Positions 26,201-58,928 are shown, numbered from the stretch's first letter. The stretch: DNA of 64,000 nucleotides from Candidatus Saccharimonadota bacterium (GCA_017406905.1 JAFQXN010000002.1:3501-67500); one strand, 5' to 3'. Numbers and translations are program-made. The notes: a model not told the origin generated them from the letters alone.

Positions 26201-27508
26201 CTATTTTACCATATTATCTGGTTTTTGGGAAGAGTCTTCTTTAGGGGCGTCTTTGCCGGAGACGTTGCCTTCAACGGTTTTAAGGGTTTTACGGGTGCGA
26301 TAGAAGTAATAACCGCCGCCACAGATGCCAGCAATAATCACAATAGCGAGGACAATCTCGAGTGGGCCGGTGTTGGGCAGCTCTTGGCAGCCTTCCATTT
26401 CGGGGTTGGTGGCACAAGTTTTAACAACAACATTGCAATTATCACCAGTAACGGTTAGCGTAAGTCCGGCGTGCTTATTGCCGTCATTGGTACTAACTGT
26501 GACATTGTTAGTGATTTCATCACCACAATTAACGCCATCTTCTACAAGAACTTGATAAGTGACTTCGGCCCAGCCGCTACCACCAGCATAATCACCAATG
26601 CTCATACCATTTTCATTGATGATGTCGTCATTGACTTCTTTGCCATCTGGAAAATTGTTGTTGTATAATTTAGCACTACCTGCGACATACTGGAGGCCTG
26701 TTGGTAAAGTATCCCTTACTACTACATTAGTTTGATCCATAGTGCCAGTGTTATCATAGCGAACTTTGAAGGTGACAATATCGCCAGCTTTGACGGTGGT
26801 AGAGTCGCCAACTACTGATTTGGAAATATCAAAACCAGGGGCATCGGCAAAAATTTGGTAGGTGATGTACCCAGCGTATTCGTTGCAACCTGGGAGAATG
26901 CCGGAGAAATTGTTATAACCAAGTAAAGCACCGTCGCCGAAAAGATAATCTGGGCCAATAGACTGACCATTCAGAGCGCCTCCGTTATGAATAGTTGCCG
27001 TGCCAGGAACATAACGCAAATAAAGATCTTGATTAGGGTTCATATAGGCGCCGTCCCAAACTGCAAGTGGGTTAGTATCATTGGCAAAAATAGTAGCTGT
27101 AACTGTCGCTCTTTCGCCAGCTTTAACGGTAGCTGGGAAACTAGACTTAACGGCTGCGCCGTCAGCAATGCCGATGGCGGTCTTGCCAATATCGTGAGCA
27201 TCGGCGTTGTTGTGATAGTAGATATAGACCTCGTAAGTTTTCCCTGCTTCGAGGGTGACTTCGTCTTGATAATATTGCTGATTAACTTCGCGAATTTGGA
27301 CGAAATTGCGTTCGTCACCTACGCCAGGATTATCAGTGATAGAATTAAAGGTAGCATAGGGAGCAGGATCGTCCCAAGTAAAAGTGGTACGATCTGGGCC
27401 CCAAGGGGTATCTACTAAAGCAGAGGCCGAAGCAAAGTTAATAAGCGCTCCGGCTAGCATGCTAATTGCTAGAGTGGCTAAAATTGATTTTGGTAAATGT
27501 TGTTTCAT
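26201..27508 (-). CDS. secreted DUF11-type surface protein with LPNTG sorting signal
   Basis: Signal peptide, WGPDR..FNSITDNPGVGDERNFV, DUF11-like VKAGDIVTF..VVRDTLPTGLQYVAGS, then LPNTG-TM-basic tail. Confidence 0.8.
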   Translation of the reverse strand: MKQHLPKSILATLAISMLAGALINFASASALVDTPWGPDRTTFTWDDPAPYATFNSITDNPGVGDERNFVQIREVNQQYYQDEVTLEAGKTYEVYIYYHNNADAHDIGKTAIGIADGAAVKSSFPATVKAGERATVTATIFANDTNPLAVWDGAYMNPNQDLYLRYVPGTATIHNGGALNGQSIGPDYLFGDGALLGYNNFSGILPGCNEYAGYITYQIFADAPGFDISKSVVGDSTTVKAGDIVTFKVRYDNTGTMDQTNVVVRDTLPTGLQYVAGSAKLYNNNFPDGKEVNDDIINENGMSIGDYAGGSGWAEVTYQVLVEDGVNCGDEITNNVTVSTNDGNKHAGLTLTVTGDNCNVVVKTCATNPEMEGCQELPNTGPLEIVLAIVIIAGICGGGYYFYRTRKTLKTVEGNVSGKDAPKEDSSQKPDNMVK

Positions 27509-30500
27509 TTAGAAATCTCCTTCTGCGACACGTGCTTCTTCTTTGGCGTCGCTATTATTATCTCCACCCGGTGTTGATTCTGCTTGAGCTTCTGCCTGAG
27601 CAGCGTTGCCTTGCCCATCTCTTTGTTGGCCTTGTTTTATCTCAGAGGCAGGATGGTAGGCGTTTTCGCCGGCCATTTCAGCGTTACCATTTTCGTTAGC
27701 AGCTTGGTTTTCACCACCCGGCAAACGAGTTTCGCCTTCAGTGGTAGCGCCCGGGGCCACTATGCCACTATCGGCAAAGCCAGTTTCTTCATTTATGCCA
27801 TTGTTTTCGCTGCCGGAGCCTGGAGTTGCTTGATTGTCATCAACGTAGCCTTGGTTGCCTTGATTTACTTGCTCGCTTTCTTCTCTAGTGACTTCAGAAT
27901 CGGGATCTACCTGGTCAGACGGCAACCTGTTGTCGCCGCTATTTGGGTCGCCGGATTTACCCCATTCAGGTTCAGGTTCTGGTTCTGGTTCGGGTTCAGG
28001 GCGTGGGCGAGGCTGAGGACGGGGTTCAGGCTGAGGTTGTGGGCGAGGTTGAGGTTCGGGCTCAGGTTCCGGTTCAGGCTGCGGCTCGGGCTGCGGTTGT
28101 GGTTCTGGTTCAGGCTGCGGCTCGGGCGTATCGTCTGGCGGCGTGACCGGGGTAGGAGTGTCGCTCGGTGGAGTTGTGTCGTCGGGAGGAGTAACCGGAG
28201 TTGGCGTGTCACTCGGTGGGGTAACTGGCGTAGTCGTATCACTTGGCGGCGTGACCGATGGCGTCGGCGTAGAGGTAGAAGGAGCAGGGGTTGGAGCGGT
28301 GTTTTGAGTCGGCAGGAACTCCCCGCGGGCAGTTTTTTGGATACAGTTAAGACGGTCTGACACGTAATCTAGCCTGTAATTATTTGGCAGATTCCATAGT
28401 CTACGAACGACATTGGTATCGTAAATCGAGTTGCCATCTTTATCGGTAAATACAATACCTATACCATTAGTAGGACGCTGGATGCGGCCCATGCGTTGCA
28501 AGATATTGCCATTGACCAATTTGGCCCAGGTCGAATATTGGTATTGATTCCCTGGCTCGGCGTAATTGATAAACCTAATTGTGCCGCCGTCAATTTTCTC
28601 GTAGAACATATCAAAGGTATCATTGACAAAGGCATCGTATGCTTCCCCATCGCGACTAATAATATCGGCGGCAAGGTTGATTTCGTCTTGGGTATCAATT
28701 AGTTCTGGCGCTCCGTCGCCATCAATATCCATTTCGAAGCCGCCACTGAGCATAACACGGGTAGAAACGATTGCTTCTGGAGAACGGCCAACAGTTTCTA
28801 GGTAAGTTTGGATAACTTCGCCTTCGGTGATTTCGTTGTTGTTGACTTTTTCCATGAAGAGGGCGTCGATTTCGGTGGAAGTGCGACCGTTGGCTTCCTC
28901 TCCTACCATCATGCGGACTACGGAAGCGCCGCTATTGTTGGCACCGTCGAGTCGCTTCATTTCGGAGAAGAAAGTGTCGTCCGTTTCACTGTAGCCGCCT
29001 TGACGAACTGCGTGCCTGACTTGAACCGCCTCACCGCTTGCGGTAGTAAGACTGGTGACGTCGTTAGTTTCTTCATACCCCATAGGAGTACCTGGATCTT
29101 TTTCGGCAATAAATCCATTTGTGGCTTCGAAGTCAGCAGCCTGAGTGACCGCTGTAGGCGTAGGTAAATCGTAAACTTCTTCACCTCTCATAATTTGATA
29201 TGCGTAGTTCATCTTGACGGCGTCTGGATTGTTGGCAACGATAGTGGCGACGTCTGGATGACCATCGCCGATAGTAGCGTAGACGTCAATATGGCCGTCT
29301 GCACCCTCGCGTACTATTTCGCCGTAGCCACCTAAGTATTGTTCACCATTAAAGAGGCTGGACTCCGGAGAACCTGCCGGAATAACGATGGTGCCATCTG
29401 GCTGAATGTCTACCGTGATGCCAGAGTTCGTGATACCATCACCTGGAGTAAGGAGCATTTTCATACCGGTCAAATCAGTGTTGGAGCCGGGGCGAGGAGC
29501 CACTTGCATAACAATATCGCCGTTGTCGCCCATGTGCGCACCACCGACAATAACTTGAGGGTTGCCATTATTATCGGTAATCCAACTTCTACTAGTAATT
29601 TCTGTAAGGTTATTAGTGTCTTTGTTATCAAGATTGAAATATTCTTTGAGTGCGACCGGTTTAGTGGCGTCTTCGACTGGGATTTCAGTTTCAAACTCTT
29701 TGATTTCGAACCCGGCATCTTCGAACATTTTCTTGGACTCTTCAGTTAGGGAGCCGTCTGGATTGTATTCTATGCCGCTAGCGTCGCCTTGGCCGATGAT
29801 TTCTTCGCCGTTAATTTTGACGTTATAGCCGCCGTTGTCGTCGAGTGATAATTCGGCTACGTTGCTAGAGTCAGAGATTTCTTCCCCAGCAGTAGCGCCT
29901 GCCGCCACTCCTGCTGCGGTGGCGTCTCCGGCCTGCCAGTGGGCGCGAATTTGCGATGATATAGCGCCAGCCGCACCACCAATCGTGGCGCCGATGATGC
30001 CGTCTACCAGGGCTTGCCTTGCCATAAACTTATACCGTGCCCGGTTCGCTTCTTTGTTGTCTTTTTCAAATTGTTGGATGTCGCTTGCGATGCGAGCATC
30101 AATTTCTTCTTCTGATACGTCTGCTCTGAGCAAATTATCCCTGGCATTACTTAATAACACAGCGAGTAGCAAACGTTCGCGAGCGATATCGCCGTGTTTG
30201 CCATCAAATGCGATTAAGTCTATGCCGAGATCGGCGGAAGCTCGGTTGCGAGCTATGGCATCAGCGTATGCCTCTACGAGCTTGTCTTTAAGCTCTGCCA
30301 AATCGGCATCTGCCTCTGGTTCGGAGAGCTGATGGTTGAGCTCATTGAGGTTATCCATGATTTCGGCGGAACTTTTGCGTTTGCGAGCCGCTTCAATGGC
30401 TTTTAGGTATTTGTCTTCGCCAGTAGCTTTGCGTTTGGCACTGTTAGCGGCGCTGTTAATTTTGGCGAGAAGACCGCGGAAGGATTTTTGCTCGGCGGCG

Positions 30501-31756
30501 TTGAGGCCTTCGGGTTTGCCGGATTCCGATTCTGTCGATTCTGATTCGGATTCGGATTCGGATTCTTCTTGCGGCTGCTCTTCGCCTTCGGCGCTGGATT
30601 CTGACGCCTGAGATTCTTCACTTTCTGGTGAAGCTTCTTCCGGTTCTGCTGGAGCTTCGGCATCAGAGCCGTCGGTGGCGTGTTTGATTTCGCTTTCGGA
30701 AATTTTAATGCTAGCTTGGCGCGCGCCACGAGCGGCACCAAAGATGCCGCCGAGGGCAGCACCGACGCCAATTGACCCACCCAAAGCAGCGCGAGCGCCG
30801 ACGCGACTTTGGTAGCCCAATACGGTGTAAGCGATGGCACCAACAGCGCCACCTTTAGCGACTGCCTCTAAGATGGAATTGACTTTTTGTTTAGTATAAA
30901 CTCCTTCTTTCATGGATGCACGATAAAGCGAAAGATTTTCGTCAAGGTAGGCGTTCAAATCTTGCTTGCTAATATCTTCTTCGGCGAGCTGTTTGATGCC
31001 GGCCTTGGCGTCTTTGATGCCGTCCAGTACGGTGATATGCTGTTTGGTGTGGTCGCCTATCAAATAGCGCATCACTGGCGAATTAAGAATACCGCCTTGT
31101 GCACCCTGCGCAAACATCCCCTCAGCTTGCCAAGCATCAATTTGACTGTCGAATTTTTCTTCGGCAGCTTTACGCTCTTCGTCGGTCTTAGCGGATTTTA
31201 AGTCGGCCAGTAAATCTGTGAGAGCACCTTTGATTTTGGCTTTTTCTTCGTCTTTGACGGCGATTTTTTCGATGCTTTCGCCTTTGTTTAATGCAACGCT
31301 ATCTTCGGAGCTGATGGAACTACCCTCTTCGGGAAAGCCGGCATCTTCGAGCGCCAATCTTGCACGTGCGCGGTTATCTTCGGCGCCATCACCGGCAGCG
31401 ATACGGCTTTGGAAGTTTTCTAAATCTAGGCTGGCGGCGGCAGAAGAAAGCTTGCCAGTTTTGGCGACTGCGCCAGAAGCTTTAGTACGATAATAGGCGG
31501 CCAGGAGAGGCTTGACGACGAGGCTGACAACGGGAGTTTTAGCAAGCGAATTAAAAAATCCCTTCTGTTTCATTTTTTGTTCAGCGGCTTCATTGATGGC
31601 ATTGCTGCGGTCAGTCTGATCCATTTCGTTAAGAACGAGAGAAAGAGAGCCTAAATGCTTTTTAATGGTGTCTTTTCTTTCATTATCGAGCGTGTACTCT
31701 GCGCTAGCGGAGTCTTCAGGACTCCGATTATCTTTTGGTGTGGGTGCTGCATCCAT
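27509..31756 (-). CDS. large (1415 aa) acidic protein with glycine-zipper hydrophobic segments and Pro-rich linker
   Basis: Long ORF in an operon with its neighbours. GxxxG-rich helices at about aa 300-355 and 580-600. Confidence 0.8.
27965..28295 (-). repeat. coding tandem repeats ([15 protein letters not shown]; PEPQ/PRPQ dipeptide runs)
   Basis: For example GGTTCAGGCTGCGGCTCGGG occurs twice. Confidence 0.85.
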
Positions 31757-31764
31757 GATTAATT

Positions 31765-32217
31765 TTACTCCTCTGTCCCCTTAGGGGTGTTTTCTCCAAG
31801 ATAGATTTCGCGGAAGCGAGCCATGGTGGCGCCGGTGATTTCGCTGGCGTCAAGGCCGGCGTCGATTATCATTTGGGCGATAACGTCGGGGGCAATCTGA
31901 CCGTTTTCGGCGGCCATCTTGCCAAGCTCTTCAAGTTTATCTTCTGGCAGCTCAGATACAAGAGAGCGGTCAATTTGTTCGAGGAGGCTAGCCTTGAGGT
32001 CGTTGTAGATGTCTTGATACATGGCTTCTTTTGAAGAATCGATGCCTTTTTCTTGCATAATGCCGCGGATGAAAAGATCAATAGTTTCCTCATTGGTGAG
32101 GTTGGCTAACATTTCGTCTTCGGAAAGGTTAGAGGTATCGTCAGCGGTGGGGGCGCCGTGGATTGCCGCTTCGTCTTGTTGAAGTGATGCAAAGGCATCT
32201 GTAGTATTGTTGTCCAT
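31765..32217 (-). CDS. hypothetical acidic helical protein (possibly DUF5663-like)
   Basis: 150-aa ORF with TTGACA-17-TACAAT promoter upstream. Family call is by resemblance only. Confidence 0.65.
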
Positions 32218-32320
32218 GTGTGAAGACCTTTCTATTAACTTTATGTATAACCTTTTTCTTTTATAATTGTAATGCTTATATTACCTGATGTCAAGCTTGT
32301 AAATTTATTGCGATAATGAA

Positions 32321-32345
32321 AAAACCGAACATCGTGTTCGGTTTT
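32321..32345 (-). terminator. intrinsic terminator AAAACCGAAC-5-GTTCGGTTTT
   Basis: 10-bp perfect inverted repeat downstream of 32401-32601. Confidence 0.8.
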
Positions 32346-32400
32346 ATGCTTGCGGTGTGAAAGGTATAATAAATGAAGTTGTGGCTATGAGGTGGATAGA

Positions 32401-32601
32401 TTATGCGGCAAGTTTTTTCTCTAGGCCCAAGATACCAAGCTTAATATTACGTTGCTTAATTCTTTCGAGACTTTCTCGTGAAACTCTATTTTTGGAAATA
32501 TAGTCTGCTTCTTGGGGGTAAGGCATAAAATCGGCATCATCAATATCGTCTTGCCAATCTGCGTTGACTACTTTGTTTGGTAAATTAATAACTTCTGCCA
32601 T
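32401..32601 (-). CDS. 66-aa small protein ending in -KKLAA
   Basis: SD AAAAGGA 5 nt upstream, own TTGACT-17-TATACT promoter and own terminator. Confidence 0.7.
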   Translation of the reverse strand: MAEVINLPNKVVNADWQDDIDDADFMPYPQEADYISKNRVSRESLERIKQRNIKLGILGLEKKLAA

Positions 32602-32800
32602 GTTTTTCCTTTTTGTTTTTGTTTTATTGGTTGTTAGAATGTTTATTTTATTTTCTAACTTACTTTGAGTATAGCACACTTAGGCGAAAAAGTCAATACT
32701 TTTTATGCTAAAAAATGAGATTTTGTCAACATCGCCTCTGGAAAAAGCTTGAAAAAACATCAAAAAGGTAGCGGCTCACCGGCTGAAGCTGATATGATAA

Positions 32801-35800
32801 TTATAATTTTTCTAATGAGATGGTGATATTTTCGCCGTTGACTTTGGCGATTTCGTCATGAGCGTAGTTAGAGTTTAGCTCAATATTATCAGCGAGAACT
32901 TCAGACTTAATCATATCAAGATGCTCTTCGGGTGGGACAATCGAGAGAGAGAGTTTAATTTTATCACCAGGGGCGAGGCCAGCGTGCTTACGAGCAGATT
33001 GAATGACACGGATGAGCTCACGGGCTTGACCTTCCCTTCTGAGTTCATCGGTAATGGTCTTATCTAGGGTAAATTCATTGGTGTTTTCGACTATTTTGAC
33101 GTTGACTTCGTCAGCGATGATTTGTTCATAAAAACTATCGAGCTTATCACCGTCATAGGTGAGCCTAGAGAGAGGCTGGCGAATTTTAATTTGTTCCTCG
33201 ATGTCGGACTTCTGCATGCGGAGAGCAAGAGCGTCGGTGATGATTTGGCGGGTGCGTGACATTTGCGCTAAAACTTCGGTGTCAATAACGTTCGGTTCTG
33301 GCCAATCCAGAAGATGGACGGAATCGGTGGAGCCAGTGATTTTTTGATAAAGCTCTTCGGCAAGGAATGGAGTAAAGGGAGCAAGAAGTTTGCTGAGATA
33401 AACTAAGACATAGTAAAGAGTAGCGAAGGCTTGTTTTTTATCTGCGGCATCTTTGTTTTTATTGAAGCGGCGGCGTGAACGACGAACAAACCAATTACTC
33501 ATATCATCAATGAACGGTAAAACACCATCTAACGCCCGGGGGATGTTGTACTCTGCCATACCCTCGGTGATTTGCTTTTGCAGCTCATAGATACGAGAGA
33601 CAATCCAGATATCGAGTGGAGAGCTTGAAATGCCTTCATCTCGGGACGGGGTTCTCGCGCCCGTCTTTACGGGGCTCGGCTCCTCGCTGTCTCGGTGGCA
33701 ACCTCCGAAGCGCCCTCGATTGGAGGCATTTTCAAGCTCTTCCGAATCTATGTTTTCAATTTCCGCATATGTCGTGAAGAAGTCGTAGACATTCCAAACC
33801 ATAGCCAATTTACGGTTGATGTCGGAGACGTCTTTATCAAGAAGGGCAAAATCTTCGCCAGAAAGAACCGGTGAGCTAAGCAAGAGAAAGCGAAGGCTAT
33901 CGGCAGAGTATTGATCCATGAGCTCATTAGGATCGGTGTAATTGCCAAGGGATTTGCTCATTTTGCGGCCATCATTCCCCGCTAATGTGCCGGTGGTGAT
34001 GACATTTTTATAGGCATTTTTGGCGCCGTTTTTGGCCTTTTCGCCAAATGCACCGATGCTGGCGAGGGCAGTGTTTACTGCGTGGACGTAGTAGAACCAA
34101 GCGCGAACTTGACCAACATATTCCACAATGAAATCAGCTGGGTAGTTGGATTCGAATTTGGCTTTGTTTTCGAATGGATAGTGGAGTTGAGCAAAAGGCA
34201 TGGAGCCAGATTCGAACCAACAGTCGAGAACTTTCTCGATGCGGGTGAAATGCTCGAGGTGGGCGCCCGTTTCGCTGGACGGGTCCTGCCGGGCATTTTC
34301 CTCCCCCACGTCGCTAACGGCTCCGTGGGGGGCCCCCTCCATGCCCGTCACCCGTCCATGCAAAACATACGCATCAAACTCAACTTCGTCCACCCATGGA
34401 CGATGATAGTCGTCGAGTTTCTTGCCGGAGTATTTTTCTAACTCTTCGTAAGAGCCAATAACAATAGTAGTGCCCTCTTTGGATTTCCAGACTGGCATGG
34501 CGGTAGCCCAGAAACGGTCGCGAGAAAGATTCCAATCTGGTGCTTGTTCAATATTATTGGCAAAGCGGCCGTGCTTGAGATAGGCTGGGAACCAGTTGAT
34601 GTTCTCGTTTTCCTCTAACATCATTTGTTTCTGGCCGTTAATATCGAAAAACCAAGACGGGAAGGCGCGATACATAATGCGTTCTTTGCTGCGGGGATTA
34701 AATGGATATTCATGCTGGATGTATTCAATTTTGTAGATGATGCCCTTCTCTTCGAGGACTTTGGCAATAAATTTGTTGCCGGCCCAGGCTTGAATACCGT
34801 GGTCATCGGTATCGCGGACGCCAAGTGCATGAAGAGTGTCGGCCATTTCTGGGAGATAGTAGCCATTTTCGTCTAGACAATCTACAAAATCAACTTCATA
34901 CTGCTGCGCAAGAGCGTAATCATCTTCACCGTAAGCTGGCGCGATGTGGACAATGCCGGTACCATCGCCGGCGGATACAAAATTACCCGGAAGTACAGAG
35001 TAGGTATCTTTGCGCTGGACTGTACCCTGGTCGCCACGAAAGCCAAGATCATACAAACCATCGGCGACGGAGATGATTGGCTCGTAATGTTTGCCGACGA
35101 GATGGGAGCCTTTGAAAGCTTTTTCTGGCTTTTGGTCTGGGAAAAGGACTTTAGCGCGCTCAAGGGCGACGATTAGTTTATCGCCGTTTACATCGTAGAT
35201 ACCGTAGTCGAGCTCTGGATTGACGGCGAGGCACATATTGGCGGGGAGAGTCCAGGGGGTAGTAGTCCAAGCTAGGAGGTACATAGGGGAGCCGACATGC
35301 GCCAGCTCGCCGCTAGCTAGCTTGAACTTAACATACGCGCTGGGATCGGTGACGGTTTGGTAGGCATCGTTATCCATGGTGACCTCGGCTTTTGATACTG
35401 GAGTTGCGAATTTAGTATCGTACATGAGAACTTTGCGACCTTCGTAAATCTTGCCAGCGTCGTAGAGCTGCTTAAAGGCCCACCAGACTGATTCCATAAA
35501 ATCTTTATTCATGGTGCGGTAACAGTTGTCAAAATCCACCCAGCGACCAATGCGATCGATGGTGCTACGCCAAGTCTCAGAATTTGCAACCATAGATTCG
35601 CGCGCCTTAATGATATAATCCTCTAGGCTCCATTTCGTGCCGATGTCGCGGCGGTCTTTAATGCCGAGCTGTTTTTCGACAAAATTTTCAGCTGGTAAAC
35701 CATGACAGTCCCAACCCCAGCGGCGCTCAACCCTGTAGCCGTTCATAGTCCAATAGCGCGGCACAGCGTCTTTGACGATTGAGCTGAGAAGAGTGCCGTG

Positions 35801-35965
35801 ATGAGGATTGCCAGTGATAAATGGAGGGCCGTCGTAAAAAACATACGATTTATCAATCGGGCGGCTTTCGACCGATTTTTCAAAAGTTTTGTGTTGTTTC
35901 CACCAATTAGCGATGGATTTTTCGTATTCTATAGCCTTTCGGCGCTCTCCAGCTCTATATTTCAT
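32801..35965 (-). CDS. ileS: isoleucine--tRNA ligase (IleRS2-like) with two GC-rich insertions
   Basis: YDGPPFITGNPHHG (HIGH-like), WGWDCHGLP, WTTTPWTLP, GTGIVHIAPAYG, KMSKS. Confidence 0.97.
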   Translation of the reverse strand: MKYRAGERRKAIEYEKSIANWWKQHKTFEKSVESRPIDKSYVFYDGPPFITGNPHHGTLLSSIVKDAVPRYWTMNGYRVERRWGWDCHGLPAENFVEKQLGIKDRRDIGTKWSLEDYIIKARESMVANSETWRSTIDRIGRWVDFDNCYRTMNKDFMESVWWAFKQLYDAGKIYEGRKVLMYDTKFATPVSKAEVTMDNDAYQTVTDPSAYVKFKLASGELAHVGSPMYLLAWTTTPWTLPANMCLAVNPELDYGIYDVNGDKLIVALERAKVLFPDQKPEKAFKGSHLVGKHYEPIISVADGLYDLGFRGDQGTVQRKDTYSVLPGNFVSAGDGTGIVHIAPAYGEDDYALAQQYEVDFVDCLDENGYYLPEMADTLHALGVRDTDDHGIQAWAGNKFIAKVLEEKGIIYKIEYIQHEYPFNPRSKERIMYRAFPSWFFDINGQKQMMLEENENINWFPAYLKHGRFANNIEQAPDWNLSRDRFWATAMPVWKSKEGTTIVIGSYEELEKYSGKKLDDYHRPWVDEVEFDAYVLHGRVTGMEGAPHGAVSDVGEENARQDPSSETGAHLEHFTRIEKVLDCWFESGSMPFAQLHYPFENKAKFESNYPADFIVEYVGQVRAWFYYVHAVNTALASIGAFGEKAKNGAKNAYKNVITTGTLAGNDGRKMSKSLGNYTDPNELMDQYSADSLRFLLLSSPVLSGEDFALLDKDVSDINRKLAMVWNVYDFFTTYAEIENIDSEELENASNRGRFGGCHRDSEEPSPVKTGARTPSRDEGISSSPLDIWIVSRIYELQKQITEGMAEYNIPRALDGVLPFIDDMSNWFVRRSRRRFNKNKDAADKKQAFATLYYVLVYLSKLLAPFTPFLAEELYQKITGSTDSVHLLDWPEPNVIDTEVLAQMSRTRQIITDALALRMQKSDIEEQIKIRQPLSRLTYDGDKLDSFYEQIIADEVNVKIVENTNEFTLDKTITDELRREGQARELIRVIQSARKHAGLAPGDKIKLSLSIVPPEEHLDMIKSEVLADNIELNSNYAHDEIAKVNGENITISLEKL
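33621..33739. repeat. hairpin/cloverleaf element in-frame in ileS (copy C, diverged)
   Basis: Terminal inverted repeat GAGCTTGAAATGCC / GGCATTTTCAAGCTC encloses internal hairpins. Confidence 0.7.
34266..34359. repeat. GC-rich palindromic element, copy B (in-frame in ileS)
   Basis: Nested stems TGGACGGGT/ACCCGTCCA, GGGCAT/ATGCCC, CCCCACG/CGTGGGG. Homologous to the miaA copy. Confidence 0.8.
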
Positions 35966-35996
35966 AAAATAATTATACCATAATTATAGACATACT

Positions 35997-36020
35997 AAAA
36001 CCCCGCCATAAAGGCGGGGT
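35997..36020 (-). terminator. intrinsic terminator ACCCCGCC-5-GGCGGGGT
   Basis: 8-bp inverted repeat followed by a U-tract on the minus strand. Confidence 0.75.
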
Positions 36021-36040
36021 GGGGTTGCGAATCGGGCAGG

Positions 36041-37195
36041 TTATTTTCTACCGAAAGAGACTTTCGCTTTATTGCGCTTTGATACGTAGCGCAGAGCGTA
36101 AGCAACCATCGCAATTACTGCTAACGATACAGCGGAGACGCCCGCTACTAAGCCTTTGCCATCAGCGGTAAAGGTACCGGTTTCTGGAGTAGAGGCCGTA
36201 GAGGATGAGGAGCTGGAACTGCTATCTGTGTCGCTTGCTAATTCGAAGTTAAATTCGAGAGTGAAGTTTGCGTCCGCCAAAGCGATGCCTTTCTTTACAG
36301 TGTCAGTATCTGTGGTGAGCTCTAGGTTAGCCGTGGGTGGCACAATCTCTACTTTTGATAATTCGTATTTAGAGAGATTGAAAATTTTGGATAGGGTGTT
36401 CGCGATGATGTCATCCGTATCAATGATGTCGCCGTGATAAATCGAGTCGTTACAGGAATAATAACCATACTCGTTTTTATCACAATTACTGTTAAGATAA
36501 ATCGGATTATGGGTTTCAACTTCCGTGTCGCCATTGAGGAAGATGGCGTAACTCACCCAACCACCACGAGTATCGACTTGATGGGTGTAGCCTCCCGACA
36601 AAATTGAGACCGTATTATCAACACTGCTTTTATCCGGGAACCATACCTCATGTGTGGATGACGAATCCAAAAATTTCAAAACGGATAAATCTATGCCGTA
36701 TTGAAAATTTGTGCCGTTTAATTCTTTATCTATCTTTTCAGCATAAGCTATGGTCTTGAGGTATAGTGAGTGGTCAGTGCCAATAGTTTCGAGATTAGGG
36801 TTGTTGGAGAAATCATAATAAGTATTTGAAATTCCTTTGACGTTAATTTCTTTTAATTTAGTGTTTTGTGAAAAATCCATATCCCAAATTCTAAGGCTAG
36901 GATTATACGAAACATCAAATTTTTCTAGATTGGGGAAGAGAGTGATGCCGCGGAAATAAACGATGCCGCGGTTGGAACAATTGAGTGTGGTGACCTTTGT
37001 GAAATCTACTTCTTCAATGCTAGTGACGCTAGTAGAAAACTCAGCATTATAATTGTCTATAATACAGTTTTTACCAGCTGCATCAAAATAGCTGGAAGAA
37101 CCTTCAGCAAAAGTGTTTGCCATAGGCACTGCGAGTCCGGAAATCGCGGAGCAAAGCATAACCCCAGTGGTTAAGAAATGTTTTGGTTTTAACAT
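36041..37195 (-). CDS. secreted leucine-rich-repeat surface protein with TPETG-like sorting motif
   Basis: Signal peptide, LRR-like VTTLNCSNRGI..LEKFDVSYNP..LKEINV, Ser-rich linker, TPETG, TM helix and basic tail. Confidence 0.8.
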   Translation of the reverse strand: MLKPKHFLTTGVMLCSAISGLAVPMANTFAEGSSSYFDAAGKNCIIDNYNAEFSTSVTSIEEVDFTKVTTLNCSNRGIVYFRGITLFPNLEKFDVSYNPSLRIWDMDFSQNTKLKEINVKGISNTYYDFSNNPNLETIGTDHSLYLKTIAYAEKIDKELNGTNFQYGIDLSVLKFLDSSSTHEVWFPDKSSVDNTVSILSGGYTHQVDTRGGWVSYAIFLNGDTEVETHNPIYLNSNCDKNEYGYYSCNDSIYHGDIIDTDDIIANTLSKIFNLSKYELSKVEIVPPTANLELTTDTDTVKKGIALADANFTLEFNFELASDTDSSSSSSSSTASTPETGTFTADGKGLVAGVSAVSLAVIAMVAYALRYVSKRNKAKVSFGRK

Positions 37196-37245
37196 AAAGT
37201 TTCTCCTTTTCGTTTGTATTTTTGTGTATAACCTTTATGCTTCTA

Positions 37246-37275
37246 ATATTACCCCCCCCCCCCCCGATTTGTCAA
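37246..37275 (-). promoter_or_regulatory. promoter TTGACA-(AATC+G14 = 18 nt)-TAATAT with homopolymer spacer
   Basis: 14 C residues at 37252-37265 on the plus strand, between the -35 and -10 hexamers. Confidence 0.8.
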
Positions 37276-37319
37276 TACCAAAAAGTGCCAAATTTTATGG
37301 CACTTTTCCACAAGTTGGA

Positions 37320-38120
37320 TTACTTCTTGTTGTGGACGTCTAGCTGGGTGTACGGGATGGAAATCTTGTGAGATTCAAGGGTGGAGACAGCGATGCCGAG
37401 AGCATTGCGCCGAGCTTGAAGGCGGTTGGCCGGATCGCAAACGATGACAAGCTGATAGTTGAGCGAAGATTCGGCGATTTCGGTAAGGCCTTGGTAGTCG
37501 CAAGAATTGATGAGGTCATTTTTTGCAACATTCTTGGCGATTTCTCGCATAACTTCCTCAGCCTTAGCAAATTGAAGTTCATACGGAAGCGGTATTGGGA
37601 GATAGATATAGCCTGGGTCGATTTCGACTTTATCAATGTTGCGATTGGCGATGGAGACGATGTCCATAGTGTTGATGTCCTGGATTTTGGTAGTGAGTAG
37701 GCTGATGGACGTAACTGGGCCGACATTATTATCGAATCTGATAACATCACCAATTTCATAATAATCATCCGAAATAATAACAAACCCGCGAATGATGTCT
37801 TTAAGTGAATCTTGAAGAGCAAAACCAACTACTATACCAACGATGCCGACGCCGGCGAGCATGGAAGTAACATTGACGCCGTAAATTTGGAGCACCATGA
37901 GAACGGTGATAATACTGAGTGCCCCAGCGACTACACTCTTGAACATACGGATAAGAGTCTTGTTCTTTTTGTTGCTGATGATTTTGGAAGATTTCTTCTC
38001 TTTCCTGCTTAATACGCGAGTAATAACGCGGTAAATAAACAAGCTAAATAAAATTACTACAACTGACCAGAAGCCGCGTTGCACCCAAGTATTTTCAACA
38101 ATATTTTTCAAAATATCCAT
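37320..38120 (-). CDS. mscS: small-conductance mechanosensitive channel family protein
   Basis: AGVGIVGIVVGFALQDSLKDII, YEIGDVI. Confidence 0.9.
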   Translation of the reverse strand: MDILKNIVENTWVQRGFWSVVVILFSLFIYRVITRVLSRKEKKSSKIISNKKNKTLIRMFKSVVAGALSIITVLMVLQIYGVNVTSMLAGVGIVGIVVGFALQDSLKDIIRGFVIISDDYYEIGDVIRFDNNVGPVTSISLLTTKIQDINTMDIVSIANRNIDKVEIDPGYIYLPIPLPYELQFAKAEEVMREIAKNVAKNDLINSCDYQGLTEIAESSLNYQLVIVCDPANRLQARRNALGIAVSTLESHKISIPYTQLDVHNKK

Positions 38121-38127
38121 AGGCTTA

Positions 38128-38382
38128 TTATATCATATAGTATAAAACTTCGTTAATGAGAGGCAAATTGCGACCACGCCAACTTTCGCGAATTTCACCT
38201 TTTTCGCCGAGGGCAAGAATAGTGGGATATTCGACGACGTCGTAAGCTTCACAAAAATTAGTATTTTGATCGGGATCCATAGTTTCTATTTCCCTGCCGG
38301 TCTGGCGACGAAAATTTTCAAGCCACTCGGAAACTGAGCGACTATAATCTTGATTGTCTCGATAAATACATACCACTCTCAT
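38128..38382 (-). CDS. thioredoxin-fold-like small protein
   Basis: YDVVEYPTILALGEKGE pattern; no CxxC. Confidence 0.55.
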   Translation of the reverse strand: MRVVCIYRDNQDYSRSVSEWLENFRRQTGREIETMDPDQNTNFCEAYDVVEYPTILALGEKGEIRESWRGRNLPLINEVLYYMI

Positions 38383-38384
38383 AA

Positions 38385-38855
38385 TTAATTGCCTATTTTC
38401 TTCATTTCTTTTTTAGCCTTTTGTTCCTTAAGAATATTCTCGAAATCTTCGAGAGTCTTGAACTCGCGAAAAACGGAGGCAAAGCGGACATAGGCAACTT
38501 CGTTGACATTTGCGAGGACATCGAGAACGGCCTCACCGATTTGCTTAGAAGTGATTTGGTCGGAACCGTAGCCATAAAGGATGTCAGTAGCACGATTAAC
38601 TACATCTTCGATTTCTAACTCGGAGTTAAAAAACTTGCCGACGCTGCGTTTGACGGCGAGGAGAAGCTTGTCGCGATCGTAGATTTCTTTGTTGCCGCTA
38701 CGCTTAGTAACTGTGAGTTGCGGCATTTCGATACGTTCGTATGTGGTGAAACGATGACCATCGGAAGAAACGCGACGTCGCCGAATCATGGTACCATCTA
38801 CCGTCTCGCGGCTTTCTAGAACTTTGCTATCTCCTATACGAAATTTTCGTTCCAT
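38385..38855 (-). CDS. nrdR: transcriptional repressor NrdR (Zn-ribbon cysteines absent)
   Basis: SKVLESR..IRRRR..RFTTYERIE, ATP cone VTKRSG..YDRDKL, VAYVRFASVFREF. Confidence 0.93.
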   Translation of the reverse strand: MERKFRIGDSKVLESRETVDGTMIRRRRVSSDGHRFTTYERIEMPQLTVTKRSGNKEIYDRDKLLLAVKRSVGKFFNSELEIEDVVNRATDILYGYGSDQITSKQIGEAVLDVLANVNEVAYVRFASVFREFKTLEDFENILKEQKAKKEMKKIGN

Positions 38856-38873
38856 TCCGCAACTCCTTTGATG

Positions 38874-40028
38874 TTATTTTTTCTTTTTGCCTTTTAGGCG
38901 CTCTCTGAGGGAAGGCGGTACATCCATATCCTCGTCGCTGGCGACGGGCTCTGGTTCTGGTTCATTTTTGATGGAATCCCACATATTGGATTTGTTTTCC
39001 AGAGCAAAATCTTTAGCCTCGGTAGTGGGCTTTTCGTCAGCAAATTTAGACTCTGGCTCTGGGGCTGGCTCTTCATTGTAATAATCGGAATCAAAACCAG
39101 TGGCAACAACAGTAACGATGATTTCATCTTCTAGCTCTGGGCGGATAGAAGCACCGAAGATAATATTAGCATCTGGAGAAACTGCACCAGTGATGACTTC
39201 GGCAGCTTCTTGAATTTCTGACATAGACATATCATAACCGCCCGCTACGGAGAACAATACCCCGCGAGCGCCTTCGATTTTAACCTCAATGAGTGGTGAT
39301 TCGACAGCTTGTTGGGCAGCGATAACAGCACGATTTTCGCCAGAAGCGCGACCGATACCCATAAGGGCCGAACCGGCATTTTTCATGATGGCTTTGACAT
39401 CGGCGAAGTCTAGGTTGATGAGAGAATGCTCAGTAATGAGCTCGGAGATACCTTGAACGCCTTGGCGAAGGACGTCGTCGGCGATTTTGAAGGTTTCTAA
39501 GAGTGGGGTGCGAGGGTCGATGGTCTGCAAAAGACGGTCATTTGGGATAGTAATAAGGGCATCAACTTGGCGAGCAAGCTTGTCAATAGCGAGGTCTGCA
39601 TTAGCGCGACGACGAGCGCCTTCAAAGGTAAATGGCTTAGTGGCCACACCGACGGTGAGAATATCTTTTTTACGAGCTTCTTCGGCTACAATAGGTCCAG
39701 CGCCAGAGCCAGTGCCGCCACCAGCACCAAGCGTAATGAATACCATATCGGCACCATCTAGAGCTTTTTCGATAGCTTCCCTGCCCTCTTCAGCGGCTTC
39801 GCGACCTTTTTCTGGATCGCCACCGGCACCAAGGCCTTTGCCGATATGGACTTTAACGTCGGCGGGCGAGTGATGTAGGGCTTGAGCGTCGGTATTGATA
39901 GCTACAAATTCAACGCCAGAAAGCCCGACTTCTTTCATTCTCTCTACGGCAGATCCGCCGGCACCACCAACTCCCACAACTTTAATACTAGCTTTGCTTT
40001 CCACCTCTGTCGGTTTAATTTCTGGCAT
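38874..40028 (-). CDS. ftsZ: cell division protein FtsZ
   Basis: GVGGAGG, GAGGGTGSG, NLDFAD, C-terminal DVPPSLR. Confidence 0.98.
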   Translation of the reverse strand: MPEIKPTEVESKASIKVVGVGGAGGSAVERMKEVGLSGVEFVAINTDAQALHHSPADVKVHIGKGLGAGGDPEKGREAAEEGREAIEKALDGADMVFITLGAGGGTGSGAGPIVAEEARKKDILTVGVATKPFTFEGARRRANADLAIDKLARQVDALITIPNDRLLQTIDPRTPLLETFKIADDVLRQGVQGISELITEHSLINLDFADVKAIMKNAGSALMGIGRASGENRAVIAAQQAVESPLIEVKIEGARGVLFSVAGGYDMSMSEIQEAAEVITGAVSPDANIIFGASIRPELEDEIIVTVVATGFDSDYYNEEPAPEPESKFADEKPTTEAKDFALENKSNMWDSIKNEPEPEPVASDEDMDVPPSLRERLKGKKKK

Positions 40029-40100
40029 AATAATTCCTCGCTTTAATATAGTATCAGTATATACCTAATCTGTGGGAAAATCAAGAGGCTATCTGGAATA

Positions 40101-41870
40101 TTATGATTCGGCTGGGTGGTAGACTGCGCCAATAAACCAAGCTTCGCCAGATGATTTGTCGCGAATGAGGAAGAGGAATGGCTGATCGAAAGTAAGGTTG
40201 ATTTCTTCGACCGGAACATCCCATTTGTACTCGAAATATTTTGGATGAGCAGCACCAAGACCGCCGACAATACCAGTAGTGGCAGCAGCTTTAATTCCAT
40301 CGTTGGAGAAATCTATGTCGGCTTTATGGACGACATCCTGAATATAGGATTCCGGTAAATTAGTCAAATTGGAGAGATCTGCAACGTTAAAATCAAATAT
40401 ATCGTTGACGCCGAGTATTTGAAGATCTTCACGGATGCCAAGATCGTAATTAAAATTAAAGAATGGTATATGGGCGGAAATTTTGGTGACTGTTCTATCT
40501 GTATAATTAGACATTACAGATGAATCTTTGAGGCCACCGATGAGGTTGGCAGCTTTTTCGACGGTGAGTGCATCAATATAGGTGTTTAAATCTTGATTTT
40601 TAGGCATGATACCAACATACTGAAGTACTGAGCCGTCGTATTCTTGAAGATCTTTAGCGAAGACTTTTTCGTTGTCGGTGTCAAGGAAATAAAAGTCAGT
40701 AGAGGTAGCGATTTGGCCATAATTAGAATTGAGCCGTTCCATATATAGGTCGATGTCGAACTCGGTGTCGTATTGATCTATATTCTCGGTGTCTTTTTGA
40801 ACTTCGGCTAGCCATTCGTCGTAGGCGGCTTGGACGGTGGAGCGGATATATTCTTCGCCAAGCTCGTTGACAATATCGTAGCGATTGACGCTGGCGCCGA
40901 TTCGCGCGGAGTCGACCTCTTGATTATTGAAGTTGATTTTGTCGAATTCGGTATGGGAAATGCCTAAGATTTCTACGGAATCGCTGTAATTTTCATTGTA
41001 GTAATTTACGCTATAATTTTTGCATGGCATATCTTTTGTGGGGTTGTAGAAACATTGGAGTTGATTGTTCCAGTTCATATCAATCGCGAGCGCATTGGCA
41101 AGGATAAAGTCGCCGTCTAATGCGGTTTCGTCGAATATGTTATTAACTATGCCTAGAGTCTTATCGCTCACCCATTGATTGAATGGCTCAACACTTTGGA
41201 ATGATTCATTAACGACTTCGGCATCGAATTTTTGTTTGAGCGTTTGAGTGTAAGAATCTAGAATATACTCTTTGACGCTATCGCGGATAAACATAGCGTT
41301 GGCTATGGAGCGATGCGAGCTGTTGGCATAAGATTTGGGCTGATAGTCACCGATGAGATTGGTGATTTGAGTTTTGGACTCGCCGGCAGTGGCTTCGGAA
41401 AGCATAGCGAGAGCGTACTTAATGGAAAGTGGGCTGTATATAATATTGTCTTTAGCGGTGGCGTCTTCAGTCGCTAAGCGAAGGAAGGTGAAATCGAAAT
41501 CGCTTAATTGGCCGAGGTCATAACTAGCTGGCTCTTGAGCGTCAGGAGATTGTTCGTCTTGTGATGGCTCAGAATTGCCCGAGAACATAAACCAAGCGAG
41601 ACAGCCTGCGCCAGCTATGAGCACGATGAGAATAATTAGAAGAGCAATGAGGAGTTTTTTGGATTTCTTGGCAGGGGCTGGCGATTCTGGCGTAGGTGAT
41701 GGCTCCGTTGAATCCAGAGCGGGCGTAGGTGATTCTGGGGAGGGAGTCGGTATGGTAGATTCTGGCTTTGAGGTGGGCTCAGGAGTGGGTTCTGGAGATG
41801 GCGCAGGCTCTGGGGCGAATGCCTGCTCCAATTGTGAATTAGATTCTGTGTGCTCTTTGGATGGTTCCAT
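40101..41870 (-). CDS. membrane-anchored serpin (serine protease inhibitor)
   Basis: NIIYSPLSI..ALAML, hinge DFSNDGIKAAATT, FDQPFLFLIRD. Pro-rich N-terminus followed by a TM helix. Confidence 0.9.
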   Translation of the reverse strand: MEPSKEHTESNSQLEQAFAPEPAPSPEPTPEPTSKPESTIPTPSPESPTPALDSTEPSPTPESPAPAKKSKKLLIALLIILIVLIAGAGCLAWFMFSGNSEPSQDEQSPDAQEPASYDLGQLSDFDFTFLRLATEDATAKDNIIYSPLSIKYALAMLSEATAGESKTQITNLIGDYQPKSYANSSHRSIANAMFIRDSVKEYILDSYTQTLKQKFDAEVVNESFQSVEPFNQWVSDKTLGIVNNIFDETALDGDFILANALAIDMNWNNQLQCFYNPTKDMPCKNYSVNYYNENYSDSVEILGISHTEFDKINFNNQEVDSARIGASVNRYDIVNELGEEYIRSTVQAAYDEWLAEVQKDTENIDQYDTEFDIDLYMERLNSNYGQIATSTDFYFLDTDNEKVFAKDLQEYDGSVLQYVGIMPKNQDLNTYIDALTVEKAANLIGGLKDSSVMSNYTDRTVTKISAHIPFFNFNYDLGIREDLQILGVNDIFDFNVADLSNLTNLPESYIQDVVHKADIDFSNDGIKAAATTGIVGGLGAAHPKYFEYKWDVPVEEINLTFDQPFLFLIRDKSSGEAWFIGAVYHPAES

Positions 41871-41901
41871 AGTGTGGTTCCCTTTAATAAATTATAATTA
41901 T

Positions 41902-43149
41902 TTAAAATTTGGAAAAAATCTTTTTAATGAGGCCAACAGGGCCCGAGCCAGATTTGGGTGTTTTGGCAGATTTGGAGGATTTTTTGCTGGTGGGAGCAGT
42001 ATATTGAGCAGATTCTGCGGCGAGCATGGCTAGACCAGCTGCGGCGGCAAATTCGGGCTTTTCGATGGCGTCGGAAACTCCTCCGAGGCCTTTGGGTGTG
42101 CCAATTTTGACGGCTGCTTCGAGGGATTTTTTGGCGAATAAATCTATGTCGCGCATTTTAGCCCCACCACCGACTAAAACGATGCCCTCGGGGAGACGCT
42201 GATCGTACTTGGCGGATTTGAGTTTTTTACGAATTTCGCCAAAAATTTCATCGAGGCGAGCTTTGACAACTTCTTCTACTTCTTTGCGGTCAAAGACTCT
42301 TTCGTCTTTACCTTCCCTGCCGATTTTGATGACTGGGCTTTTGTCGGTATCGAAATTACCGGTAACGAAACGAGTTTTGATTTCTTCAGCAAGACCAGGA
42401 TCGATAGCGAGAACGATGGCGAGATCGTTCGTGATATTGTTTGAGCCGGCTGGCACAACGCCCACATATTGCAAATCACCTTCTTCGTAGACTGCAACTG
42501 AAGTGGTGGCGGCACCAAAATCTACAACGGCAACGCCGTTTTCTTTTTGACGCTCGGTAAGGACGGCCTTGGCAGCAGCTACAACGCTAGGAATGAGCCT
42601 TTCGGCGTGGACATCAGCGGCAGAGGTGGCTTTTTTGAGATTTTCACAATTTGGAGTGAGTGCCGAGATAACATTGGCGCGCATCTCTAGGCGTGCACCG
42701 GACATGCCGAGCGGATCCTTAATCCCTCCTTGCCCGTCAAGAGCGTATTCTAGTGGAACTACATCCAAAACATCGCGATTGGCTGGAATGCGGCCAGATA
42801 CGGCTACTCCTTCTACTCTGTCTAAATCTTCGTCGTTAATCTCGTGTTCTACCGTACCGACGGCAATCATACCTTCGGTATGAGTAGAAATGACGGTGGA
42901 GCCATTAATAGAAACATAGGCTGAGCGCACATCATAGCCACCCATACGTTCTGCATCGCCGAGCATTTGGTCGATAGAACCGGCTGGGCCAGCAAGATTG
43001 GCTGGTACACCTTTGCGCATACCGGCGGATTTACCTTCATTGTAGCCGACGATGGCAATTTCGCCGCTTTTATTAACACTGGCAATCACGGCACGGACGT
43101 TTTCTGTGCCTACGTCGAGACCTGTAACAAAACGATTATCGTTATCCAT
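41902..43149 (-). CDS. ftsA: cell division protein FtsA
   Basis: GLDVGTENV, VVDFGAATT, LVGGGAKM. Confidence 0.95.
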   Translation of the reverse strand: MDNDNRFVTGLDVGTENVRAVIASVNKSGEIAIVGYNEGKSAGMRKGVPANLAGPAGSIDQMLGDAERMGGYDVRSAYVSINGSTVISTHTEGMIAVGTVEHEINDEDLDRVEGVAVSGRIPANRDVLDVVPLEYALDGQGGIKDPLGMSGARLEMRANVISALTPNCENLKKATSAADVHAERLIPSVVAAAKAVLTERQKENGVAVVDFGAATTSVAVYEEGDLQYVGVVPAGSNNITNDLAIVLAIDPGLAEEIKTRFVTGNFDTDKSPVIKIGREGKDERVFDRKEVEEVVKARLDEIFGEIRKKLKSAKYDQRLPEGIVLVGGGAKMRDIDLFAKKSLEAAVKIGTPKGLGGVSDAIEKPEFAAAAGLAMLAAESAQYTAPTSKKSSKSAKTPKSGSGPVGLIKKIFSKF

Positions 43150-43190
43150 GATTTTATTATAGCATATAATAAATAACTAATTTCAAGATT

Positions 43191-44550: not shown

Positions 44551-44659
44551 AAAACTCCTTTAATTATATTATACCACTCTTGACGAGTCCTGCTAGTTTT
44601 TCCCCTAAAATTGGTGACAATTTGGAATAATTTTAAAAGTTATTACTCGTTGACGTAAT

Positions 44660-44687
44660 ATAAAATCTCCCCGAGGGGAGATTTTAT
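44660..44687 (-). terminator. intrinsic terminator after rpsU
   Basis: AAAATCTCCCC-GA-GGGGAGATTTT. Confidence 0.8.
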
Positions 44688-44905: not shown

Positions 44906-44990
44906 ACTGGTTTAATTATAGCACAGGTTAGGAGAAAACACAAGAGGGGGCCCGATGATAATAAAAAAGCCCTGAGGGCTTTCTTTGCAG

Positions 44991-45067
44991 TGGCGGAATC
45001 GACGAGACTCGAACTCGCGACCTCTGCCGTGACAGGGCAGCGCTCTAACCAACTGAGCTACGATTCC
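44991..45067 (-). tRNA. tRNA-Asp(GUC)
   Basis: GGAATCG...CGATTCC-G-CCA cloverleaf, anticodon GTC. Terminator AAAGCCC/GGGCTTT follows. Confidence 0.97.
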
Positions 45068-57953: not shown

Positions 57954-58928
57954 CTATTTCAAATATTCGTGCAATTTTTTGGTGTCTTTGTTTTTGCGGA
58001 GCTTGGAAAGGGCTTTGGCTTCGATCTGGCGGATACGTTCGCGGGTAACATCGAACTCTGAGCCGACTTCTTCTAATGTATGCGGGCGCCCGCCGCCAAT
58101 ACCAAAACGAAGGCGGATAATTTTTTGTTCACGCTCGGTAAGGGTGGAGATAATTTCGGAAAGTTGTTCTTTGAGGATTTGATTTGCGGCGGTCTCTTCT
58201 GGGGATGCGCGCTCTTCGTCTTCGACAAAATCACCGAGTACAGAATCTTCGTCGTCACCTTCGCGACCGACGGAAGCATCGAGTGAAGCAATATCTTGCT
58301 TAATGCGCATGACGTAATCGATCTTTTCGGGCTCCATGTCAAGCTCTTTGGCGATTTCTTCGTTTGTGGGTTCGCGATTAAGCTCGGCGGTAAGCTTGCG
58401 GGTGGTTCGAAGGACTTTGTTAATGGTCTCAACCATGTGGACCGGGATACGGATAGTACGAGCTTGATCAGCGATGGCGCGAGTGATAGCCTGACGCACC
58501 CACCAAGTAGCATAAGTGGAGAATTTAAAACCTTTGTCGGGGTCAAATTTTTCGACGGCACGCAAAAGGCCAGTGTTCCCTTCTTGGATAAGATCAAGAA
58601 AATCTAGGCCACGGCCACCATAACGCTTGGCAATAGAAACGACTAGGCGCATATTGGATTCGACCATTTTGTCTTTGGCTTTTTTATCGCCTTTGACAAT
58701 GCGCGACGCGAGGTCGGCTTCTTCTTCTGGAGTAAGAAGTGGGATTTTACCGATTTCACGAAGATATAATCTGACGGAATCGTCAGCAAAAGCATCGACA
58801 TTTTCAGCCGTAATAGCGAGCTCCTCGTCTGAAAGCTCTTCCTCGTTCTCGAGGTCGCCAGTGCCTGGCTCGTCGAAATCTAAAGTTAAATCTTTTGCAT
58901 TCAAAATATCGTCTTTTTTCGAGCTCAT
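57954..58928 (-). CDS. rpoD: primary sigma factor RpoD (short, lacking region 1.1)
   Basis: [52 protein letters not shown]. Confidence 0.97.

Follow-up and report, generated by a model that had tools for sequence, protein, structure and literature searches.

A poly-G tract in a promoter spacer as a probable expression switch for leucine-rich repeat surface proteins in Saccharibacteria

The window considered here is a stretch of 64,000 nucleotides from Candidatus Saccharimonadota bacterium (GCA_017406905.1, JAFQXN010000002.1:3501-67500). It contains a gene for a predicted surface protein with leucine-rich repeats (LRR), preceded by a promoter-like sequence in which a run of 14 G's lies between the -35 and -10 hexamers. 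This tract is probably a hypermutable repeat in the spacer of a sigma-70-type promoter, acting as a slipped-strand switch of expression, and its counterparts upstream of related genes would form a family-wide set of contingency loci. Positions are given on the + strand of the window; the LRR gene and its promoter lie on the - strand, and G14 denotes the coding strand, the same run being read as C14 on the + strand.

Variation of the tract length

The length of the tract differs between genomes that are otherwise the same. In Logan contigs, the dominant strain of runs X1, X2 and X3 shows no substitution relative to the window over 27300-47200 (19.9 kb), and the only indels fall at the tract, which reads C13 in X1 (84x), C15 in X2 (41x) and C15 in X3 (30x), against C14 in the window. 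These contigs are built from 31-mers, and a contig that passes through the tract needs words spanning all of it. The low-depth runs X9-X12 gave no further tract lengths. The tract is likewise the sole difference between the window and the ENA contig L001 over 7,155 bp. Since only the tract differs across these flanks, its length changes far faster than the sequence around it. The tract is therefore not invariant, whereas invariance was what the earlier note on this DNA had named as speaking against switching, and the C13 allele of run X1 is a natural instance of the loss of one G that was proposed there to bring the spacer to 17 nt.

Assembled tract lengths are reproducible, as independent assemblies agree with each other (L020 with L021, L023 with L026). 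A syntenic sister species carries tracts of G12, G12, G13, G13, G15 and G15. Other runs vary in this species too. The T7/T8 run just upstream of the -35 box differs between L023/L026/L031 and L027/L030 (about 7229-7236). Codons 2-5 of the gene (about 7316-7330) read AAAAAC-AAAAAA, giving MKNKKY, or AAAAAA-CAAAAA, giving MKKQKY, a pattern that would result if two A runs had each shifted by 1 nt as a pair.

Many contigs end or are N-gapped at the tract (L002-L005, L014, L022, L032 and X4-X8). The broken ends (L003 1-53, L004 1-51 and the loose end of X4 at 37250) run on as a T followed by about 50 G's, or C51-53 on the other strand. Reading these breaks as mixtures of tract lengths was rejected, because a T followed by a long poly-G end is the mark of reads going dark at the tract. 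As poly-G tracts fragment Illumina assemblies, genes of this kind are likely to be missing from bins of the Candidate Phyla Radiation (CPR), or to be cut at contig ends in them.

Promoter architecture and spacing

Read directly on the - strand, the sequence upstream of the LRR gene is GGTA-TTGACA-AATC-GGGGGGGGGGGGGG (G14)-TAATAT-TAGAAGCATAAAGG...AAAGGAGAAACTTT-ATG, with TAGAAGCATAAAGGTTATACACAAAAATACAAACGAAAAGGAGAAACTTT between TAATAT and the ATG (Table 1). AATC and G14 together make a -35/-10 spacer of 18 nt; the ATG, at 37195, lies 50 nt past the -10 box, with AGGAG 8 nt before it. The span 36041-37275, to which the earlier note had drawn attention, comprises the gene plus its promoter. A consensus promoter scan finds the same site, with 10 of 12 hexamer positions matched and a spacer of 18, so that the placement of the tract proposed in that note holds by both routes. 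So does its claim that no other long homopolymer is present in the window, since a run scan of the 64 kb otherwise finds C runs of up to 5, G runs of up to 6 and A or T runs of 8 at most. By a rough estimate, about 1e-5 C14 runs would be expected from base composition. The + strand of the whole window holds 16064 G's against 12922 C's, with T above A. Nearly all genes lie on the - strand, so that coding strands are rich in C and A, and against this background 14 consecutive G's on a coding strand stand out still more.

Table 1. Positions of the LRR gene, its predicted regulatory elements and the primary sigma factor gene in the window
Feature	Position	Strand	Basis and details
Terminator-like hairpin, 11-bp stem GAAAAGTGCCA/TGGCACTTTTT, T-rich 3' side	37280..37308	-	RNA fold of 37272-37322, -15.5 kcal/mol
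-35 hexamer TTGACA	37270..37275	-	Sequence reading and consensus scan
Non-repeat spacer part AATC	37266..37269	-	Sequence reading
G14 homopolymer, variable-length spacer part, abutting the -10 box	37252..37265	-	Sequence reading and run scan
-10 hexamer TAATAT	37246..37251	-	Sequence reading and consensus scan
Predicted 5' leader	37196..37245	-	Includes motif CATAAAGGTTATACA (37225..37239) and Shine-Dalgarno AGGAG (37203..37207)
Coding sequence, 384 aa	36041..37195	-	Open reading frame
Signal peptide, about aa 1-30	37106..37195	-	Family alignment
Helical cap with internalin-like LRR and beta domains, aa 31-322		-	Model and Foldseek; Ser-rich linker follows
TPETG sorting motif, aa 336-340	36176..36190	-	Family alignment
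Membrane helix aa 349-368, then basic tail	36092..36151	-	Family alignment
Intrinsic-terminator-like hairpin ACCCCGCC..GGCGGGGT, then TTTT, ending the LRR unit	36000..36020	-	Fold, -18.8 kcal/mol
Primary sigma-70 factor, next to dnaG	57954..58928	-	Pfam Sigma70_r1_2, r2, r3, r4

Is the distance between the two boxes likely to matter in this organism? The sigma-70 factor encoded in the window has region 4 and would read both hexamers, which makes the -35/-10 spacing a meaningful constraint here. The preferred promoter spacing of the organism is 17 nt: 7 strict matches to TTGAC[AT]-N-TAnnnT in the window have this spacer, against 0-2 for any other length, and several of the 17-nt matches precede a tRNA, the tmRNA or open reading frames with a Shine-Dalgarno sequence.

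In the mechanism proposed, slipped-strand mispairing at replication would add or remove G's. The tract abuts the -10 box, and a change in its length would displace and rotate only the -35 box relative to the -10 box. Transcription would then be graded by the spacer, with a maximum near G13 (17 nt), a lower level at G14 (18 nt) and little or none from G15 upwards. The optimum at G13 and the lengths that correspond to the ON state are set here by analogy with porA, with tp0126 and with other promoters of the window, and the rate and reversibility of switching are those that a slippage mechanism would imply. Neither MutS nor MutL was found in a published comparative survey of Saccharibacteria (PMC8406219). 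If this is true of the present genome, slippage in repeats would go largely uncorrected, favouring instability of the tract. Repeat slippage is also largely uncorrected in Campylobacter and Helicobacter.

Conservation of the arrangement across a protein family

The LRR protein belongs to a family of which 13 promoters were examined, the upstream regions being read from DNA fetched around homologues; pattern scans of GTDB genomes and of JGI metagenomes added one locus each. TTGAC[AT] is kept in all 13. Nine lineages, at 37-59% protein identity and in at least six genomic contexts, carry a tract (Table 2). All nine have their G's on the coding strand, directly next to a TAnnnT -10 box, and the linkers between the -35 box and the tract vary from 4 to 9 nt and are unrelated in sequence. 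Four relatives have the same hexamers and no tract, and their spacers are fixed at about 15-17 nt. The conserved position of the tract, the fixed spacing where it is missing and the peak at 17 nt in the window together indicate that the two hexamers are real promoter boxes and that the tract moves the spacing between them.

Table 2. Promoters of the LRR protein family, with the length of the -35/-10 spacer
Lineage	Promoter	Spacer (nt)
Window lineage	TTGACA-AATC-G13/14/15-TAATAT	17/18/19
Syntenic sister species (L006-8, L023-31)	TTGACA-AAACTC-G12/13/15-TATTAT	18/19/21
L009	TTGACT-TTTTTC-G8-TAGAAT	14
L014	TTGACT-TTTTGC-G17 or longer (N gap)-TAGAAT	23 or more
L010	TTGACA-TTTTCGACC-G11-TATACT	20
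L012	TTGACA-AAAAAC-G13-TATTTT	19
L015	TTGACT-TTTTGTGCC-G10-TACACT	19
L016	TTGACA-AATCGTACC-G12-TATACT	21
L020/L021	TTGACT-TTTCT-G10-TACAAT	15
L013	Tract-less	17
L017	Tract-less	17
L018/L019 (about 1925-1950)	Interrupted G-rich remnant GCGGGAGTGG	16
L011 (about 2870-3000; NCBI metagenome-assembled genome GCA_016280905.1)	Tract-less	15-17

Two of the tract-less cases, L018/L019 and L011, are apparently decay products of the switch, to judge from their sequences, and the interrupted spacer of L018/L019 would lock its length. The L011 gene is itself truncated, having lost the start codon, the signal peptide and the LRR part (the N-terminal half), with 230 aa left. More than one member of the family can occur together. 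L009 and L010 come from one assembly, at coverages of 6.90 and 6.85, and are probably two copies in one genome. In L016 (348-3727) the G12 promoter precedes a two-gene operon. Its first gene encodes a 688-aa LRR protein that has a PNTG sorting signal of its own, and its second, after 23 nt, encodes a 408-aa family member.

In about 100 kb of related loci, the only other run of at least 7 G's or C's is one in-frame C9. This run, on the coding strand of L012 (4881-4889), encodes DPPPG close to the 5' end of a gene for a PhoH-like ATPase, and may be either harmless or a further site of slippage.

With the same device in front of most members of a Saccharibacteria-specific family, the tracts would act as a set of contingency loci, diversifying the cell surface within a population. 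A wider proposal, held only tentatively, is that Saccharibacteria of the ruminant gut may possess a 'phasome' in which nearly every family member has its own poly-G spacer and several copies per genome switch independently. The combinatorial surface states produced in this way would decide which host bacterium or animal surface is bound, or allow escape from phage or immunoglobulin A, and these would be the first contingency loci to be described in the CPR. If true, such a phasome would offer a minimal genome a form of bet-hedging that needs no regulator.

Alternative explanations

Several observations weigh against a switch. All tract lengths are those of assembled consensus contigs, and homopolymers of at least 13 are error-prone in Illumina data. 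The breaks in L003/L004 and X4 carry the dark-cycle poly-G artefact, and the tract of L001, assembled as G20, is unreliable and may be an assembly artefact such as k-mer collapse. In the sister species, length differences accompany 0.3-1% substitution and could be fixed strain differences, and a G12 tract is common to two identical contigs of separate samples, so that the tract does not differ in every sample. The yield of the consensus promoter scan is that expected by chance (4 sites against 3.8 in shuffles), and the hexamer match alone is not significant. Most assembled spacers in the family measure 18-21 nt, with one of 14 and one of 15, and not 17.

Part of this evidence would fit a tract that is stable in each strain, with no high-frequency switching, the length differences being sequencing or assembly errors or fixed differences between strains. 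The failure of Illumina sequencing at the tract, seen in the poly-G and poly-C ends, the N gaps and the suspicious G20, is in keeping with such errors, as the alleles of the sister species, which follow strain divergence, and the G12 shared by identical contigs from two samples are with fixed lengths. However, the contrast between C13 at 84x and C15 at 41x and 30x comes with zero other differences over 19.9 kb, and noise around one length would hardly shift the dominant allele by 2 nt at these depths. Together with the reproducibility of assembled lengths (L020/L021, L023/L026), this makes a stable tract distinctly improbable.

Why, then, are most assembled alleles away from the 17-nt optimum? 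It is possible that the tract is mutable and acts in some other way, as a binding site for a regulator, as a G-quadruplex or as A-form DNA, or that it is a neutral by-product of slippage without mismatch repair; the placement of the G's always on the coding strand would also fit this. But the G8 and G10 tracts (L009, L015, L020) occupy the same position and are too short for a three-tetrad quadruplex, for which reason the G-quadruplex was rejected as a general explanation. Against neutrality, nine lineages have the tract at precisely the same place in the promoter, and it is absent from the rest of about 160 kb. The tract-less relatives, moreover, keep their hexamers about 15-17 nt apart, which indicates that the spacing is constrained. 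Such other roles, or none, are therefore unlikely. A shift of the geometric optimum by a G/C tract was also considered, and is not supported by known cases. If the tract is indeed a spacer switch, the predominance of 18-21 nt implies that bulk gut populations are mostly low or off, with ON variants a minority.

Transcription unit and leader

The upstream terminator-like hairpin closes an MscS-like gene (37320..38120, with MscS Pfam domains), and a second one ends the LRR unit. Hairpins on both sides argue that the LRR gene is a self-contained transcription unit with its own promoter. Transcription would start near 37238-37239, as predicted from the position of the boxes.

A functional promoter elsewhere would leave the tract in untranscribed upstream DNA, or place it in the 5' leader, where it would act on RNA through transcriptional slippage or RNA structure. 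The start of transcription is placed by inference only, and the leader does hold a conserved motif, CATAAAGGTYATA, which gives this some footing. Nevertheless, every tract-bearing lineage has TTGAC[AT] on one side of the tract and TAnnnT on the other, and in the tract-less relatives about 15-17 nt separate the two; the hairpin directly upstream leaves no room for another promoter, and a consensus scan finds no other good -35/-10 pair between this hairpin and the ATG. A promoter at another place is thus highly improbable.

The leader motif, CATAAAGGTYATA(C)A with an A-rich stretch behind it, begins at the predicted start or close to it in most members of the family, and is seen at the equivalent position in L006-L011, L013-L015 and L017-L019. 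In L020 a copy of it, AAAGGTCATA, occupies the Shine-Dalgarno position. An Rfam search of the leader gave no family at E <= 1. Pairing between the leader and the start codon, seen in the fold of the window sequence, was dropped as a candidate since it is not conserved in relatives.

Downstream of the LRR gene, the ileS gene of the window has TATAAT 6 nt before its ATG and no Shine-Dalgarno sequence, and its mRNA may be leaderless. Among sister-species strains with an identical FtsZ protein, the LRR gene and the poly-G promoter are both present or both absent. Strains without the LRR gene (L024 7192-7417; also L025, L028 and L029) have a 225-nt ileS leader with a Shine-Dalgarno sequence. The T-box model matches there below threshold, at 36 bits where the gathering score is 93 (E = 1e-6, search of 301 nt). 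Genomes that carry the LRR gene, including the window (35966-36040), have only 75-80 nt before ileS and no T-box.

Relation to known switches

The arrangement appears, from its sequence features, to match the promoter-spacer class of repeat-mediated phase variation (the porA, tp0126 and vlp type) in the position of the repeat, the two-box polymerase and the hypermutability relative to the flanks. In Neisseria meningitidis, a poly-G tract between the -35 and -10 boxes of porA gives expression of the surface protein that is graded and not simply on or off, with a spacing optimum of 17 nt (PMC7864442). In Treponema pallidum, tp0126 has a poly-G tract in the same place, is transcribed best at a 17-nt spacer and varies in tract length within isolates, and the tprE/G/J/L genes, which encode putative surface proteins, have poly-G in their promoters (PMC7864442).

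The likeness to porA lies in a G homopolymer in a sigma-70 spacer, in slippage that changes the spacing and in a surface protein as cargo. Differently to porA, which encodes a porin of a Gram-negative pathogen, the device found here precedes a sortase-type LRR protein in the CPR and is common to a whole paralogous family. The porA tracts are also shorter, at about 9-11 G, against 8 to more than 15 G here. With T. pallidum the system shares poly-G promoters in front of several surface genes and an uncultivable organism with a reduced genome; T. pallidum is, however, a spirochaete and its genes encode outer-membrane proteins, and variation and effect were measured there by fragment-length analysis and green fluorescent protein reporters, whereas here they are deduced from assemblies.

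A third case is vlp of Mycoplasma hyorhinis, in which each member of a surface-protein family has its own spacer homopolymer and ON/OFF states combine in a minimal-genome, host-dependent bacterium. The vlp tracts are poly-A rather than poly-G, the products are lipoproteins with repeat-encoded size variation, and the phylum is another. The poly-C promoters of the fim genes of Bordetella pertussis belong to the same promoter-spacer class.

No report of repeat-mediated phase variation was found in the searchable literature on Saccharibacteria, Patescibacteria and the CPR. Phase variation is mentioned in one paper on Saccharibacteria, but there it is that of the host bacterium, and the hypervariable repeat described in a paper on Gracilibacteria is a coding one. 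The promoter switch proposed here would thus be of a known kind, seemingly not yet described in Saccharibacteria.

CPR bacteria have tiny genomes with few recognisable regulators, and how they choose and retain their hosts is poorly understood. A mutable promoter in front of the family marks the LRR proteins out as candidates for a part in host interaction or for antigens. A further suggestion is that bet-hedging at the level of populations, well known from pathogens such as Neisseria, Treponema, Mycoplasma and Campylobacter, extends to the phylum Saccharibacteria.

The surface protein

The product is predicted to be a sortase-type, cell-wall-anchored, internalin-like LRR surface protein. Its family is small: a homologue search gave 24 matches at 37-59% identity, all metagenomic and none named. 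In the family alignment the signal peptide is followed by a conserved N-terminal part whose periodicity is LRR-like; the middle is variable, and after it come a conserved C-terminal domain and a Ser- or Pro-rich linker. The C-terminus is tripartite, with TPETG followed by the hydrophobic helix LVAGVSAVSLAVIAMVAYAL and then the basic tail RYVSKRNKAK.... In an alignment of 22 sequences P337, T339 and G340 are invariant or nearly so; the first position of the motif is T, A or V and not the canonical Leu, giving the family consensus [TAV]P[DEN]TG.

The AlphaFold2 model has a predicted local distance difference test score (pLDDT) of 80.7, with 241 residues above 90. Its top Foldseek matches in the PDB are internalins, led by InlB (E = 3e-6, probability 0.99) and followed by InlA, InlJ, InlC, InlK, InlH and InlF, at 9-19% sequence identity and global template-modelling (TM) scores of 0.16-0.23. 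The earlier note had described a secreted LRR protein with a TPETG motif, and the alignment, the model and the Foldseek matches all uphold this.

As a protein, though not as a switch, the product resembles the Listeria internalins InlB, InlA and InlJ in its order of signal peptide, helical cap, LRR solenoid, beta domain or domains and C-terminal sorting signal. It differs from them in its low sequence identity and TM-scores and in having [TAV]P[DEN]TG instead of LPXTG. Profile searches give less. Pfam LRR_4 reaches 17.4 bits on the protein, below the cut-off of 27, and two homologues have a precomputed PF12799 match. NCBIfam gives no match, neither Pfam nor NCBIfam matches the protein with a Gram_pos_anchor or LPXTG model, and a cluster look-up returned no name for it.

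A surface protein is the usual cargo of such switches, which supports the reading of the tract as one. The protein may serve as a host-attachment factor. No sortase was found among the scanned open reading frames of the window. A 435-aa protein (26201..27508, - strand) has a signal peptide, a DUF11 / RrgB-like isopeptide pilin-like domain and a canonical LPNTG anchor, and this second wall-anchored protein makes sortase-type anchoring plausible in the organism. Directly upstream of it, a 1415-aa protein without a Pfam match (27509-31756, - strand) may be another surface structure.

Organism and neighbouring genes

Several proteins that bear the name '[Candidatus Saccharibacteria bacterium]' at NCBI share 94-96% identity with the FtsZ protein of the window, and one homologue of the LRR family lies in a metagenome-assembled genome titled uncultured Candidatus Saccharibacteria. 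The CPR origin that the earlier note had suggested is thereby confirmed and narrowed to Saccharibacteria. Gut metagenomes, described as ruminant, sheep and bovine, are the source of the contigs. An epibiotic lifestyle may be expected by analogy with cultivated Saccharibacteria.

Housekeeping genes in the window, nearly all on one strand, include gyrB, parAB, thrS, ileS, ftsAZ, polA, dnaG-rpoD, RNase P RNA and tmRNA. Between ftsA and ftsZ lies a gene for a 589-aa protein with a C-terminal serpin domain (40101-41870, - strand). In the sister species the same slot holds a Fic-domain gene on the opposite strand, which indicates that this site inside the division cluster is variable. Scattered among the housekeeping genes are also a VirD4/TraD-like coupling protein (2890-5523), a type IV secretion pilin (57502-57945), a zeta-toxin-domain gene (55814-56617) and a RhuM/Fic gene (50410-51393).

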